From contig JAKSVZ010000009.1 of the NCBI GenBank assembly GCA_024407725.1, positions 1 through 32,000 on the forward strand: a stretch of 32,000 nucleotides of DNA. The letters are read 5' to 3'. Of this stretch, positions 22,752-26,547 are shown in pieces. The notes under the pieces were generated by a model. The model was not told where the DNA came from. It did not search any database and was given only the letters and a program-made list of their open reading frames with translations. Source of the stretch: Opitutales bacterium (GTDB taxonomy: Bacteria > Verrucomicrobiota > Verrucomicrobiia > Opitutales > UBA9783). Numbering within the stretch: position 1 is the first letter of the stretch; the number at the start of each line of letters is the position of its first letter. Both the position numbers and the translations under genes were made by a program.

Positions 22752-22846
22752 CTTGACTTACATAGCCAAATAGGATATAAGTCTTTTGCTACCTGTAATC
22801 CTTATAGAATTAATTTTATTGTAATAAGAACGTAATAAAAGTCAAG
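22752..22846. repeat. TTGAC/GTCAA-bounded element A (95 bp) with face-to-face promoter-like ends
   Basis: Plus strand: TTGACT 22753..22758, 17-nt spacer, TATAAG 22776..22781. Minus strand: TTGACT 22845..22840, 16-nt spacer, TACAAT 22823..22818. A-tracts flank both ends. Confidence 0.7.
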
Positions 22847-22894: not shown

Positions 22895-22991
22895 CTTGAC
22901 AAAATAAAGTTTTATCTTACAATCACAATTAATGCATTTATTGAACATATGGCTCAATCTTATTTTAAAGATTGATACCATTAATGTCAAG
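22895..22991. repeat. TTGAC/GTCAA-bounded element B (97 bp)
   Basis: Plus strand: TTGACA 22896..22901, 16-nt spacer, TACAAT 22918..22923. Minus strand: TTGACA 22990..22985, 17-nt spacer, TAAAAT 22967..22962. A hairpin terminator follows immediately. Confidence 0.7.
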
Positions 22992-23028: not shown

Positions 23029-24094
<1,066 letters not shown>

Positions 24095-24286
24095 GAATGC
24101 GAATAGATGTCTTAACCCTCATCCTACCCCATCGCTAAAAAGCATAAAGAGACTTAAAGGAACCACAAAGCACTCGCATTAGGAACCAAAACCTTAAGCC
24201 ATCGCAAGCATTTCCCTGCTAAATTTAGTCCTAACACAACATCCTATAACTTAGTCGGACGCCTAAAAAAGATTGATGAAAACAGG

Positions 24287-24382
24287 CTTGACTTTTATCC
24301 TTATTAGGAATATAAATATATTCCTACTTTTGTGAATAGATTTGAATAATATTCTTATATAAGATCTTGTAAATAAGTCAAG
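24287..24382. repeat. TTGAC/GTCAA-bounded element C (96 bp)
   Basis: Plus strand: TTGACT 24288..24293, 17-nt spacer, TATAAA 24311..24316. Minus strand: TTGACT 24381..24376, 16-nt spacer, TATAAG 24359..24354. A perfect 9-bp inverted repeat, AGGAATATA-aa-TATATTCCT (24306..24325), straddles the plus-strand -10. Confidence 0.7.
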
Positions 24383-24391
24383 ATAAAAGCA

Positions 24392-24418
24392 AACCTGCAG
24401 GTACGCAGGTTGTTTTTT
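24392..24418. terminator. Bidirectional intrinsic terminator
   Basis: Stem AACCTGC (24392..24398) paired with GCAGGTT (24405..24411), 6-nt loop, then GTTTTTT. On the minus strand the same stem is followed by TTTGCTTTT, downstream of the 24467 stop. Confidence 0.75.
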
Positions 24419-24466
24419 GTCAATGATTGATTCCACTGGTATCTGAAATAGAGCAGGATTTGTTCG

Positions 24467-25598
24467 CTAAAAGGGAACATCTTCGTCGTTGTCAGAAGAT
24501 TGTTCAGGGTTCTGCAATTTATCCTCTGAAAAACTTGAATTTAACAACAGGTTCAATTTAAAAGCATTCGTCAAAAAATTTATTGTGCTGCAAGTAAGCT
24601 CTACAACGTAGCGTGCTTGGTATTTCTTTACACATGCATTCACATCATGAGCAGTACTAGCTATGTTTCTTAATTCCTTAACTCCCGTAAAGATATTAGC
24701 ATATGGATCCTCTTTAATTGGATCTATACATTGTTGAAGCGTGCACAAGGCACCTATAGCCAGCCCAATCCCTTGTTTTTCTACTTCATCTAGGTATAAA
24801 GAATTCAAGCTTTTATCAAGGTTTTGATGTTTAAGTAAGTTTTGCAAATAATCGATTATGTCTCCCCATGAATTTTTATTCTTTTTGAAAACCTTATTAA
24901 AAACAATTTCACATAACACTTTTAAAAAGCGTGTTAACGACAATTTACAATACAGTAACACTGCATCATATTTATCATGTTCTAATAAGTCTAGTATTTC
25001 AATAATCCTACTACCAACTACCTGATTGCACCAAATGGGGAGAGAAATATTAAGGATCGGAAATTCAATTAAGTCTGTAATTTTAACCCCATCGTCTGAA
25101 AAATGATATTCCAATCTGAAATGATATTTATTCCACAATTTAAAATTGACTGCTCCAATAATTACCCGACAAAAATTATAATAATTTTCATCATAAACAT
25201 TTTTTATCAGTTTCTTAAAAAAATCTGGGTTTTTTTCGTCAGGCGCCGATTGCAAGCGATTCAAATTAAACAAATCAGTTAATATTTTCAAGACTCTCTT
25301 GGAGGAGTCTTTTTGCGTAGAATTTATACAACCGCTTATCGTACGTTGATATAAATCAAACGCTTTCAACCAATGCCCATTACCCCAATCATAACATCTC
25401 TCAGAAACATCCATGAGAGGCATCTGAACCGCTTTCCAAGGTTTTCTAGATCCTTGAATGGACGCTGGCCAATCAATATTTTTAGGAAGACTTTTTTCCT
25501 CAGCTAAATATCGCGCAACAATGGGGGGGGATGGATTTTGTTCCGGTCAAATAACCAACAATTTCCTCATCCAGCAAACACTTCCATTTGTTTTCCAT
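24467..25598 (-). pseudogene. AT-rich hypothetical gene with an Abi_C-like C-terminal motif, interrupted by a frameshift at a C8 tract. It would encode about 376 aa if restored.
   Basis: ORF 24467..25423 stays open upstream to 25546 without a start codon. A 32-codon ORF from ATG 25598 (MENKWKCLLDEEIVGYLTGTKSIPP...) enters G8 at 25523..25530 (C8 on the coding strand). Removing one C joins it in frame to ..IVARYLAEEKSLPKNIDWPASIQGSRKPWKAVQMPLMDV... The C-terminal ELRNIASTAHD..ARYVVELTCSTINFL resembles the LRNxxGxAHG..hA.l.vn.a..l..fL core of Pfam Abi_C. Confidence 0.6.
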
Positions 25599-25701
25599 TC
25601 CCCTACCCTACCTGCTCTATTCCAAAAAGCAAGATAAATTCTAGGTAAAAGGGCTGTTTTTGATTGAAATGCATGCTGACCGTGCAGCATATTTTAAAAA
25701 G

Positions 25702-25800
25702 CTTGACTTATATCGTTAATAAGTATAAACTTTGTATTGAAACAATGGAAACAATAGGAAATTAAGTTAATTAATAACATAATTGTCTCCCCACGTCAAG
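25702..25800. repeat. TTGAC/GTCAA-bounded element D (99 bp)
   Basis: Plus strand: AAAAAGCTTGACT with TTGACT 25703..25708, 17-nt spacer, TAAACT 25726..25731. Minus strand: TTGACG 25799..25794, 18-nt spacer, TATTAA (weaker). Internal direct repeat GAAACAAT x2. Confidence 0.6.
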
Positions 25801-25916
25801 CCAAATCAGATTTTTTGCATTTACCCCCTACTAAATACAATGGATTTAGCGTACAGGAAACGCCATCATCAATCTCTGTGATTGAAGCCCAGAAACCGGA
25901 TAGATTCGATAAAAAG

Positions 25917-26013
25917 CTTGACAAAGGTATTACTTTTAGGGAAAAATGATTTATTGACAATTGATACAGTAATATTCAATAATATCGTAGCCAATTCTTG
26001 TACCGTAGTCAAG
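25917..26013. repeat. TTGAC/GTCAA-bounded element E (97 bp)
   Basis: Plus strand: AAAAAGCTTGACA (TTGACA 25918..25923) with only a weak -10 (AAAAAT at 18 nt) and a second internal TTGACA at 25954..25959. Minus strand: TTGACT 26012..26007, 17-nt spacer, TACGAT 25989..25984. A hairpin plus T-run follows. Confidence 0.6.
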
Positions 26014-26018
26014 TAAAA

Positions 26019-26047
26019 AACCCACGCACAGCCGAGGGTTGTTTTTT
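26019..26047 (+). terminator. Candidate intrinsic terminator after element E
   Basis: AACCC (26019..26023) pairs with GGGTT (26036..26040), with two inner C-G pairs, followed by GTTTTTT (26041..26047). The stem is modest. Confidence 0.45.
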
Positions 26048-26215
26048 CCCATTTTTCCACTCATTATAAGCCAAAAGCACAAACCTTAGGCGGTAAAAAC
26101 GTTATTTTGTTGATCGAAAACACGCGCGGTTAGATTATCTTTAGAAGTTATCTTGAGAGGTTTTGCTTAATTGCAACACCCCAAACGTTTACCCTGCTCT
26201 GAATTTTAATAAAAG

Positions 26216-26310
26216 ATTGACAAATAGGTTATTTTTGAAATAATAATTCTATTGGACAACCTACAATAATGCTTCACATTTATTGTATAAAATCTTATAC
26301 AAAAGTCAAG
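26216..26310. repeat. TTGAC/GTCAA-bounded element F (95 bp)
   Basis: Plus strand: AAAAGATTGACA (TTGACA 26217..26222), 16-nt spacer ending in TGa, then AATAAT 26239..26244 (extended -10-like). Minus strand: TTGACT 26309..26304, 16-nt spacer, TACAAT 26287..26282. An 8-bp inverted repeat, TTGTATAA-aatc-TTATACAA (26283..26302), covers the minus-strand -10. Confidence 0.7.
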
Positions 26311-26547
26311 CAAAAGTGTTTTAAAAGGCACAAATACCCATAAATCCAAAGACATTTGTAAAACAATCCATTCAGGTGATACAGTGGGGCTGTAATAACC
26401 ACACCATAGCTAAACCAACACCTTGTTTCAAGGTATATAAGCCCAAGAATCCTAGAAAAAACACAACTTAAGAACGCATTACGCGCCTACCGAGTTCACA
26501 TTCCAATCAAACAAGAACCCCTAGCGGTATTTCTTTTAAAAAATTTC

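Follow-up and report, generated by a model that had tools for sequence, protein, structure and literature searches.

A poly-C tract splitting a putative AbiJ-like HEPN gene of a horse-gut Verrucomicrobium, a possible slippage switch in a rare gene family

Simple-sequence contingency loci with coding poly-G or poly-C tracts are found in Neisseria, Haemophilus, Campylobacter and Helicobacter, and a C run is present in Bordetella bvgS. Phage defence may also be phase-variable, for example in the Pgl/BREX system of Streptomyces coelicolor, which has a G tract in pglX, and in Type I and Type III restriction-modification. With regard to translation, CCC-C decoded by tRNA-Pro is the textbook case of a +1-prone sequence, and stalling at Pro-Pro is EF-P-dependent, effects reportedly treated by Gamper and colleagues in 2015. 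We know of no described tract-mediated phase variation in gut Verrucomicrobia. The HEPN domains of AbiJ proteins are fused to several different N-terminal domains, and the HEPN catalytic motif is R-x4-6-H, the Arg being followed by a polar residue (Anantharaman et al. 2013, PMC3710099). Among the papers searched, none reported that a homopolymeric tract switches a HEPN or Abi gene.

We analysed a 32-kb stretch of DNA (32,000 nucleotides, hereafter the window) from an Opitutales bacterium. It contains a gene, designated A', which as sequenced consists of two frames split at a poly-C tract. Its full-length homologues are the A genes of two relatives, L081 and L085, and a paralogue, B, reaches into the end of the window. 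The parts of the split gene are as follows.

24467..25598, minus strand: whole gene A' read with C7, 376 aa, putative AbiJ-like HEPN (Abi_C) protein, collinear with paralogue B and the L081 and L085 A genes
25500..25598, minus strand: upstream ORF of 32 aa from ATG 25598 (ORF list)
25523..25530, minus strand: poly-C tract, C8 over Ile-Pro-Pro codons (G8 on the plus strand)
24467..25546, minus strand: main reading frame with stop codon 24469..24467, composed of a start-less extension (25546..25424) and the 318-aa ORF
24467..25423, minus strand: 318-aa ORF from ATG 25423 (ORF list)

The preliminary description of this DNA had reported a gene split by C8, and this observation is confirmed; all of its sequence statements hold except the extent of the GC difference, which is considered below. 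G8 is present where it had been placed, the short ORF runs from ATG 25598 to the stop at 25500, and the frame of the 318-aa ORF is open upstream as far as 25546, directly preceded by TGA at 25549..25547. The predicted fusion into about 376 aa was also reproduced: translation of the edited sequence gave a 376-aa product when one C was deleted and 377 aa when two were added, the in-frame tract lengths for A' being C7 or C10. Codons 1–25 of the 32-aa ORF (MENKWKCLLDEEIVGYLTGTKSIPP) are the true N-terminus and align with A of L081 and L085 and with B; they are followed by seven out-of-frame codons and TGA. Residues 1–25, upstream of the tract, and 26–58, from the tract to the annotated start, are both conserved in A (L081, L085) and B. 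Since the protein sequence is conserved on both sides, the ancestral functional form is the full-length frame running through the tract. Gene callers annotated versions of 315 and 318 aa (P0001, P0006), and the deposited 315/318-aa protein is a truncated call, as 58 conserved residues are missing from its N-terminus.

The C8 tract is more than a chance feature of the sequence. No other G/C run in the 32-kb window is as long, the next being one run of 7 and four of 6, and CCC accounts for only 25% of Pro codons in 17 housekeeping ORFs. The sole other G/C run of at least 7 is a G7 at 28894-28900, inside the 392-aa ORF 28733..29911, which is the succinate-CoA ligase beta subunit by synteny with L085; its frame is unbroken, and C7 occurs at matching offsets in the homologous gene of four relatives. 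The preliminary description had proposed comparison of the tract among sister strains, and this comparison showed a conserved position and a variable length: all three full-length homologues (A' and the A genes of L081 and L085) carry a poly-C run, always over the same Pro-Pro codons. The two tracts outside the window are given below.

L081, 1165-1172: homologous tract, C8, in frame
L085, 3654-3664: homologous tract, C11, out of frame

The tract contexts have diverged (ATC8ATT in the window, ATAAC8ATA in L081 and ATAATC11ATA in L085), and the tract is the longest G/C run in L085 as well. L081 and L085 are 96% identical overall and have opposite tract phases, in frame versus out of frame, as compared between consensus sequences. 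Besides, the out-of-frame C11 of L085 is also present in L088 and the out-of-frame C8 of the window in L086. Other coding indels between L081 and L085 are of 6 and 3 nt, which fits a past in which selection maintained an open frame upstream and downstream of the tract. Across 376–377 codons, at 34–38% GC, neither A' nor the L085 A gene has a lesion besides the tract, and L081 A, in frame at the tract, carries a 1-nt deletion and a premature TAG. In at least eight sister contigs (L082–84, L091, L092 and L097–99) only C-terminal remnants of 57–94 aa are left, and no trace of the gene was detectable in L094–96. The dN/dS ratio of the A genes between L081 and L085 was approximately 1.6, compared with 0.33 for the adjacent BacA gene; neutral evolution of A was not rejected (p = 0.07–0.12), and purifying selection at the BacA level was rejected (p ~1e-6 to 1e-7).

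With respect to the reliability of the tract lengths, the Logan assembly of SRR17543914, a run of an equine gut metagenome study (PMC9529974), was 100% identical to the window over 3396 nt, C8 included, and C11 of the sister lineage was found in both megahit and Logan assemblies, although in each of these assembler pairs (two for C8, two for C11) both members may share the same reads. Both samples of the window lineage have C8.

The A' family appears tiny and, judged by database searches, confined to one gut/rumen Opitutae-like lineage. In a total of approximately 15 billion proteins searched, only a few rumen and horse-gut relatives were found, and none of the proteins searched was an intact in-frame version of A' or A. 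Restored A' matched itself alone in word-indexed searches of 5.8 billion protein clusters, an exhaustive phmmer search of 1.84 billion representatives found only P0002 and P0003, and queries with alignments added P0004, P0005 and P0008. The family alignment had no relatives in JGI metagenome contigs and IMG/VR, and 0 of 80 GAPDH loci from GTDB species genomes had an A' homologue. When the GAPDH gene of the window was compared with GTDB species genomes, it was Opitutales/Puniceicoccaceae-like at 77–78% identity, with no close genome. Overall protein identity of A' was 41–45% to the A genes of L081 and L085 and 23% to paralogue B, with which the alignment was end-to-end and collinear from residue 1. 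Paralogue B was stable throughout the comparison set; a complete copy is located at 909-1937 of L089, and in the window B and the prepilin-peptidase gene overlap by 63 nt at their 3' ends.

31746..32000, minus strand: 3' end of paralogue B (Abi_C, motif RNHAGDAHG), running off the window end
24569..24700, minus strand: Abi_C (PF14355) match, residues 300–343 of restored A' (24.8 bits, cut-off 24, E 2.4e-5)
24647..24670, minus strand: HEPN-type motif R310-N-I-A-S-T-A-H317, R-x6-H with polar N after R (alignment, codons checked)

The C-terminus of A' had been noted to resemble Abi_C, and the PF14355 profile, which we take to be the AbiJ family, supports this likeness at threshold: restored A' passed the gathering cut-off narrowly. 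Paralogue B was a clear match (39.4 bits, E 6.5e-10), and restored A of L085 had no Pfam match at E<=1. The R, N, A and H of the motif are invariant across A', A and B; in the remnant protein P0003, Gly replaces the motif Arg. An AlphaFold2 model of A' had a mean pLDDT of 61 and a pTM of 0.43, with residues 192–345 helical, the low confidence being explained by the shallow alignment of 6 sequences. Using this model, Foldseek gave no PDB match at E<0.001; only HEPN domains (1o3u, 2hsb and 3o10) appeared at probability 0.92–0.97 and target TM-score 0.61–0.65, which we consider weak support alone since the E-values were not significant. A sequence search of PDB with paralogue B found nothing, a search of NCBIfam gave nothing useful, and PADLOC-DB v2 defence models matched restored A' in 0 families at E<=10. 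Thus, the proposal of a defence-type gene draws support from the Abi_C score, the R-x6-H motif and a paralogue with a clear Abi_C match, and receives none from PADLOC models.

The predicted product of A', of about 376 aa, joins some 290 aa of uncharacterised N-terminal and middle sequence to a C-terminal AbiJ-type HEPN (Abi_C) domain with the R-x6-H motif, and is therefore a putative RNase, related in kind to abortive-infection or toxin proteins. It is similar to lactococcal AbiJ and its relatives in being a single polypeptide with a C-terminal HEPN-type domain, in having Asn after the motif Arg and a variable uncharacterised N-terminal region, and in its variable genome region (the paralogue pair of L085 is less than about 1 kb from Dcm methylase and Eco47II-type restriction genes). 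In contrast to them, it is at the Pfam threshold only, its restored L085 counterpart has no Pfam match, no PADLOC model recognises it, its family is limited to a single lineage, and it has His-Asp where paralogue B has His-Gly.

The gene is located in a small islet beside a tRNA gene, with the following features.

24079..26540: AT-rich islet of 2.46 kb, 34.5% GC, holding A' and replacing 26 nt of sister genome L085
26548..26623, minus strand: tRNA-Val(TAC), 3' end abutting the islet (Rfam)
24392..24411, both strands: bidirectional intrinsic-terminator-like hairpin, 8-pair stem followed by a T-rich tail on both strands
25771..25799, minus strand: candidate A' promoter, TTGACG, 17 nt, TATTAA (read by eye)
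25702..25800: CTTGAC-N87-GTCAAG module upstream of A'
25917-26013: second upstream copy of the module
24287..24382: CTTGAC-N84-GTCAAG module between A' and GAPDH

The islet begins directly at the tRNA-Val 3' end and is missing from the syntenic sister genome L085, to which its flanks are 96.5% and 90% identical and in which the same tRNA-Val lies 53 nt from GAPDH. A GC content of 25–30% against 45–50% had been claimed for the gene and its surroundings; A' is indeed AT-rich, but the difference was overstated, as GC was 34.3% in A', 34.5% in the islet and 43.2% in the rest of the window, with one 400-nt bin down to 28%. The terminator-like hairpin is 56 nt past the A' stop codon. The candidate promoter lies at the right-hand end of a module in which two promoters face each other, and a transcript from it would have a 5' UTR of about 165 nt; it was missing from the promoter scan because its -10 box ends in A. 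A' has a promoter-like site and a terminator of its own. Rfam identified three tRNAs and nothing else over the window. Islet ORFs had no integrase or other recognisable domain in Pfam, and since the small ORFs lack Pfam domains no antitoxin or partner candidate was seen in the islet. Of the features of tRNA-associated genomic islands, adjacency to a tRNA gene and absence from L085 were observed; no integrase was found, and no direct repeat of the tRNA 3' end was seen at the far islet edge. The suggested horizontal acquisition agrees with an AT-rich, tRNA-side insertion that has no counterpart in the sister genome, but it gains no support from an integrase or att repeats, and the islet contains the lineage's own repeat modules. 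A tblastn search of 50,697 phage and 72,556 plasmid records gave no match and hence no sign of phage or plasmid origin. The gene had been described as bracketed by TTGAC/GTCAA elements. Such elements do flank it, but they are a genome-wide intergenic feature and do not mark gene boundaries: there are six of these modules in the window, so they are not specific to A', and the module at 25702..25800 is 86% identical over 51 nt to one downstream of the L082 remnant gene. Their interpretation as transposon-like ends of a mobile unit carrying A' was rejected because the modules also occupy four further intergenic sites of the window and, in relatives, other loci.

The preliminary description had left four explanations side by side: phase variation, a required frameshift, decay and sequencing error. 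Our comparison narrows them, since conserved position and variable length favour slippage, decay is also supported and sequencing error is unlikely. We tentatively prefer the reading that the poly-C tract is an ancestral slipped-strand on/off switch, currently OFF; this is the most likely of the explanations, with plain decay a serious rival and the family one that is often lost. The preference is based on three of three homologues sharing the run at the same codons, on differing lengths and phases, and on the run being the longest G/C run. The tract over Ile-Pro-Pro codons near the 5' end would be an ancestral family feature, and replication slippage would alter its length and move the gene in and out of frame; the sequenced population, at C8, would be OFF and make only the 32-aa peptide, and cells with C7 or C10 would be ON. 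By our own estimate, with CCC at its share of Pro codons, the probability of a repeat tract at the homologous site by chance is below about 0.01. As expected for a contingency locus, a homopolymer of at least about 7 nt sets the frame, with C7 or C10 restoring 376–377 aa; length polymorphism with ON and OFF phases is seen between close relatives, as consensus sequences and with L081 broken elsewhere; and the tract, retained at 41–45% identity, is an outlier for the genome. A' and A also resemble such loci in having 8–11 nt of homopolymer in the 5' coding region and OFF frames that stop within 6–8 codons. They differ in that the host is a gut Verrucomicrobium, that sister copies are decaying and that the length differences are seen between consensus sequences. 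Compared with phase-variable defence systems, a defence-type gene would likewise be toggled by homopolymer length and the rationale of sparing the cost or toxicity of constant expression would be shared; those systems are multi-gene and methyltransferase-based, whereas A' encodes one HEPN protein and the islet holds no partner gene. The intact R-x6-H motif and the reproduction of tract lengths by independent assemblers argue for a switch. On the other hand, the only allele in frame at the tract has further lesions, the window lineage has C8 in both samples, and the threshold Abi_C score, the lack of a PADLOC match and the low-confidence structure model weigh against it. We infer that switching may occur at present and that the ON protein may be an active RNase serving defence.

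The serious rival, which is possible though we doubt it, is that A' is a plain pseudogene, dead or dying, in which poly-C as the most mutable site broke first and switching has no current role. The preliminary description took equally disrupted orthologues, together with uniformly C8 reads, as the mark of a pseudogene, and orthologues were found equally or more disrupted, which counts for decay, as do the remnants across the family and the contigs with no detectable trace, the additional frameshift and nonsense codon of L081, the dN/dS ratio with rejection of BacA-level purifying selection, the lack of an intact in-frame copy in any database searched, and C8 in both assemblies of the window lineage. 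However, despite 55–59% protein divergence the run still occupies the same codons, in AT-rich genes in which CCC is a minority codon, and one would expect a costly hypermutable run to have been purged or randomised if it were neither tolerated nor selected. The absence of lesions besides the tract in A' and L085 A, and the intact promoter-like site, terminator and catalytic motif, also speak against simple decay, and diversifying selection on a defence gene would yield a dN/dS above 1 as well. If homopolymer sequencing or assembly error had added the extra C, the real gene would be intact at C7. Homopolymers are error-prone and all data are metagenome consensus, but this explanation is the least credible of all: the SRR17543914 Logan assembly agrees on C8, the sister lineage has C11 in megahit and Logan assemblies, the G7 of the succinate-CoA ligase gene leaves its frame open, and the same site would need independent errors in two lineages. 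It is also very unlikely that the 315/318-aa ORF is the functional product, started at an internal ATG at P-L-M-D, with the tract adding an optional 58-aa N-terminal extension. A', L081 and L085 each have Met in this motif (MPLMD, LPLMD and LPSMD), gene callers chose this start, and GGAAAG lies 8 nt upstream of ATG 25423; yet the lost 58 residues hold D10, L17, G19, P25, W43 and P44, which are invariant in A', A and B, paralogue B has Val instead of Met at that position, and the L085 copy has no convincing ribosome-binding site there.

Expression despite the extra C, by a +1 ribosome shift on CCC_CCC_C at Pro-Pro(-Pro) or by RNA polymerase slippage, with a toxic RNase kept at a very low level, seems rather improbable. 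AT-C8 in the window and AT-C11 in L085, both in otherwise intact genes, are both 3n+2 and would need the same +1 correction, and the sole allele in frame at the tract (L081) gained inactivating lesions, as expected if unthrottled expression is harmful. However, the shared phase of two alleles would occur about 1 in 9 times by chance under random phase variation and is weak evidence. The need for a +1 correction is shared with prfB, as is a shift-prone codon in the P site (here CCC followed by C); in contrast to prfB, A' has no stop or rare codon in the A site, the next 0-frame codon being an ordinary CAU, and no suitably placed internal Shine-Dalgarno. No conserved, well-spaced stimulator was found, as the G-rich stretch upstream has not been conserved in the window and is about 19 nt from the shift site, and the L081 allele is in frame at the tract. 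Besides, bacterial examples of programmed +1 frameshifting are very rare, the main one being prfB, and RNA polymerase slippage is best documented on A/T runs. A stricter version, in our opinion improbable, is that the extra C is the normal state and the HEPN RNase is made only by rare +1 tRNA-Pro or polymerase slippage: two paralogues at 41–45% identity both keep a 3n+2 run over Pro-Pro(-Pro), and the L081 allele would have lost the slippage requirement and then been inactivated by other mutations. If so, the tract would be a built-in throttle on a toxic protein, which could sense the translation state (EF-P, tRNA modification) and hence phage infection.

Under the preferred slippage reading, a working switch would extend homopolymer phase variation to a single-protein HEPN/Abi-type gene and to gut Verrucomicrobia, and it would be a natural case in which a population hedges against the cost of an RNase that is potentially suicidal. 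A' is, putatively, a very rare RNA-cutting defence or toxin gene of a horse-gut Verrucomicrobium. The comparison set captures one small gene family at every stage of loss, from the tract only (L085) through several lesions (L081) and remnants to nothing detectable, and this series, with paralogue B stable alongside, is usable for studying the turnover of defence-type genes in gut bacteria.

The split gene A' occupies the minus strand at 24467..25598, where two reading frames meet at a run of eight Cs.

Components of A' and its flanks
ATG 25598 to stop 25500, minus strand: 32-aa ORF, passing through the eight Cs at 25530..25523
25423..24467, minus strand: 318-aa ORF, one frame away from the 32-aa ORF
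56 nt past the A' stop codon: terminator-like hairpin
~165 nt upstream of the A' ATG: promoter-like TTGACG-17-TATTAA, read by eye and absent from the promoter-scan list

The 318-aa frame was open upstream as far as 25546, immediately past a TGA at 25549..25547. Removal of one C fused both ORFs into a protein of 376 aa (the restored protein), and addition of two Cs gave 377 aa. What the preliminary description had stated on the ORFs, the C8 tract and the fusion of the frames by loss of one C was correct throughout on re-reading. No other G/C run in the window was as long as the tract; behind it came a single 7-nt run and four 6-nt runs. The gene had also been described as AT-rich, which was confirmed (34.3% GC versus 43.2% for the window outside the AT-rich islet that holds it), but the contrast was smaller than had been estimated.

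Neighbouring genes placed the host in Verrucomicrobiota, near Opitutales/Puniceicoccaceae (GAPDH 77–78% identical). The relatives' runs and assemblies appear to be rumen metagenomes, judging from sample labels and from project PRJEB21624. A Logan contig of SRR17543914, a run from an equine gut metagenome study (PMC9529974), matched the window at 100% over 3.4 kb. Among the relatives, the 37.8-kb sister contig L085 was syntenic with the window and carried a homologous gene (A) next to an Abi_C paralogue (B).

Gene order in the two contigs
L085: PFK, GAPDH, tRNA-Val, ferredoxin, rpoN, sucC, sucD, (methylase and restriction genes), tRNA-Asp, prepilin peptidase, B, A, BacA
Window: PFK, GAPDH, [islet], tRNA-Val, ferredoxin, rpoN, sucC, sucD, tRNA-Asp, peptidase, B 3' end (31746..32000)

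At 7038-7782 and 7772-8827 of L085 (both minus strand), an Eco47II-type restriction gene split into two ORFs, beside an intact Dcm-type methylase, is one more disrupted defence gene nearby. The window is without this restriction-modification pair, and tRNA-Asp comes directly after sucD.

We found that the restored protein matched the Pfam Abi_C profile, as had been proposed, at 24.8 bits (E 2.4e-5, residues 300-343), narrowly above the gathering score of 24; a suggested search of defence profiles gave nothing useful in PADLOC, nor did NCBIfam. The Abi_C assignment is backed by an end-to-end alignment with B (342 aa; 23% identity, E 4e-5), which is itself a clear Abi_C match (39.4 bits, E 6.5e-10). 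Every member in the alignment of A', A and B shared R-N-x5-H.

Variants of R-N-x5-H
A': RNIASTAH
A genes of relatives: RNLLSSAH
B: RNHAGDAH

Anantharaman et al. 2013 (PMC3710099) defined the signature of HEPN RNase domains as R-x4-6-H in which a polar residue follows the Arg, and by sequence the family motif corresponds to it. An AlphaFold2 model of A', built from an alignment of six sequences only, was of low confidence (pLDDT 61) and gave no significant Foldseek E-value; the sole matches combining a probability >0.9 with a target TM-score of 0.61-0.65 were the HEPN-domain structures 1o3u, 2hsb and 3o10, which lends weak support to a predicted structural resemblance. Based on the threshold score and the motif, the A' product probably belongs to, and works like, the AbiJ-type HEPN/Abi_C group. 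The family is rare: protein searches covering 5.8 billion clusters and 1.84 billion representatives yielded no more than three groups, namely the window protein, A-type genes (known from a handful of contigs) and B, which makes up a single 17-member cluster at 90%, and nothing was found in JGI metagenomes, IMG/VR, phage records or plasmid records.

Window 31746-32000, minus strand: B 3' end; the whole gene is at L089 909-1937 (342 aa, motif RNHAGDAHG)

B was intact in all relatives' contigs covering it, with identity of ~95% among rumen relatives and ~91% when L085 was compared with the window lineage, and one homologue bears the label "Opitutae bacterium". B and the prepilin-peptidase gene (31038-31808) converge, and their 3' ends share 63 nt. 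B is stable, whereas its neighbour A decays.

The islet (24079-26540; 2.46 kb, 34.5% GC) lies exactly at the 3' end of tRNA-Val, where in L085 only 53 nt separate tRNA-Val from GAPDH. Since the islet occupies this site in the window and not in L085, A', which is 41-45% identical to A, is a divergent paralogue at a new locus. The difference could reflect either gain by the window or loss by L085. No integrase, other recognisable ORF or repeat of the tRNA-Val end was found in the islet. Its ~700 nt of AT-rich DNA from the upstream modules to tRNA-Val (25826-26540) had no ORF >63 aa and neither Pfam nor Rfam match, yet strong promoter-like sequences occur at several points in it, and 26028-26042 (plus strand) resembles a terminator. 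The TTGAC/GTCAA elements reported to bracket A' were indeed present, but were not specific to it: they form a module, CTTGAC-N83-87-GTCAAG (95-99 nt), with six intergenic copies in the window versus 0.01 expected by chance.

Module positions
Window, all intergenic: 22752-22846, 22895-22991, 24287-24382, 25702-25800, 25917-26013, 28386-28482
L085: 2393-2491, 4738-4836
L089: 2181-2277, 2385-2483
L082: 715-813

Modules recurred in relatives L082-86 and L089 and were absent from 21-kb loci fetched from other Verrucomicrobiota. Because the islet contains three copies of this lineage-native module, it more likely came from the lineage's own gene pool than from a distant source. Module ends resemble inward-facing sigma-70-type promoters (-35 TTGAC(T/A/G), with a TA-rich -10-like box 15-18 nt on) whose predicted start sites are ~25 nt apart, and the AT-rich interiors show no conservation from copy to copy; a pair of convergent promoters, a pair of regulator-binding sites and a MITE-like element are all possible identities for the module. 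In the copy at 24287-24382, the plus-strand end (TTGACT, 17 nt, TATAAA) is aimed at a bidirectional terminator hairpin at 24392-24411, and a ~90-nt small RNA (approximately 24323-24411, plus strand; no Rfam match) could be made just downstream of and convergent with A'.

Comparison of the tract with relatives, as the preliminary description had suggested, showed that all three full-length homologues carry a poly-C run across the corresponding Pro-Pro codons, directly before a conserved I-V, with varying length and frame state.

Poly-C tract in full-length homologues
Window: ATC8ATT, SIPP/IVARY, out of frame
L081: ATAAC8ATA, ITPPIVSYH, in frame
L085 (L088 identical): ATAATC11ATA, IIPPP/IVSYY, out of frame

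The C11 was the longest G/C run in L085 (next longest, 6), and CCC accounts for only a quarter of Pro codons. DNA flanking the tract has diverged, so the shared tract is not a recent local transfer. Residues 1-25 upstream of the tract and 26-58 between it and the annotated start align with A and B and include family-invariant positions; this conservation on both sides implies that the ancestral functional gene spans the tract and, therefore, that the 315/318-aa proteins on deposit were called too short. L081 and L085 were 96% identical, with a 4-nt difference at the tract and other coding indels of 6 and 3 nt. The first ~77 codons of A, around the tract (L081 1044-1440 against L085 3538-3770), differed about three to five times more than the remainder (dS 0.125 versus 0.023), and 38 of 80 mismatches were concentrated in 400 nt, which suggests that the 5' end of A may be mosaic or recombined, or that mutation was locally raised.

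We tentatively favor the tract as an ancestral slipped-strand switch, now OFF, by which a working gene would flip ON and OFF through slippage. It is preferred because two divergent paralogues have long kept the tract at matching codons, a retention hard to explain unless the run was tolerated or favored in a working gene. The same retention argues against a plain pseudogene, a reading that ranks a close second and is a real possibility: none of the databases searched held an intact in-frame A' or A, and L081 A, whose tract does not break the frame, carries a 1-nt deletion (GAAAAAGAAC to GAAAAAAAC) and a CAG-to-TAG change 14 codons ahead of the conserved end. In the BacA-B spacer of relatives, full-length A occurred in L085, L088 and L081 only; C-terminal remnants of 57-94 aa (one without the putative catalytic Arg) were kept in L082-84, L091, L092 and L097-99, and no trace was detectable in L094-96. 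Between L081 and L085, dN/dS of A was 1.6 (gene body 2.2) compared with 0.33 for adjacent BacA; BacA-level constraint was rejected (p ~1e-6 to 1e-7) and neutrality was not (p = 0.07-0.12). These values fit relaxed selection, and diversifying selection would fit too. Under any model the tract is the likeliest first break, and damage confined to it therefore cannot separate switching from early decay.

Expression by rare +1 slippage on CCC_C, or by RNA polymerase slippage, is unlikely but worth noting. Both otherwise intact alleles require the same +1 correction (3n+2 Cs after AT), and the sole allele in frame at the tract (L081) carries the extra lesions, a pattern that would fit this reading; however, no conserved stimulator was found, and two alleles would share this phase by chance about once in nine times. 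That an internal ATG yields a truncated but functional protein is conceivable but quite improbable. Least probable of all is a sequencing or assembly error, which would need to hit the homologous site in two lineages: the C8 of the window is also in the Logan assembly (both may rest on the same reads), and the C11 of L085 is in megahit and Logan assemblies (which may likewise share reads). The window's only other G/C run >=7, a G7 at 28894-28900 (plus strand), does not break its ORF (392 aa, 28733..29911), which by synteny with L085 is the succinate-CoA ligase beta subunit. In the homologous gene of four relatives (L091, L092, L094 and L095), a C7 occurs at offsets that match. Homopolymer calling can usefully be checked against this run as an internal control.

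Phase-variable defence is known from restriction-modification systems and Streptomyces Pgl; in the literature searched, no report was found of homopolymeric tracts switching HEPN or Abi genes. In its behaviour the A' tract resembles poly-G/C contingency loci known from host-adapted bacteria, and its kept position and varying length indicate that this family has long lived with a hypermutable run.
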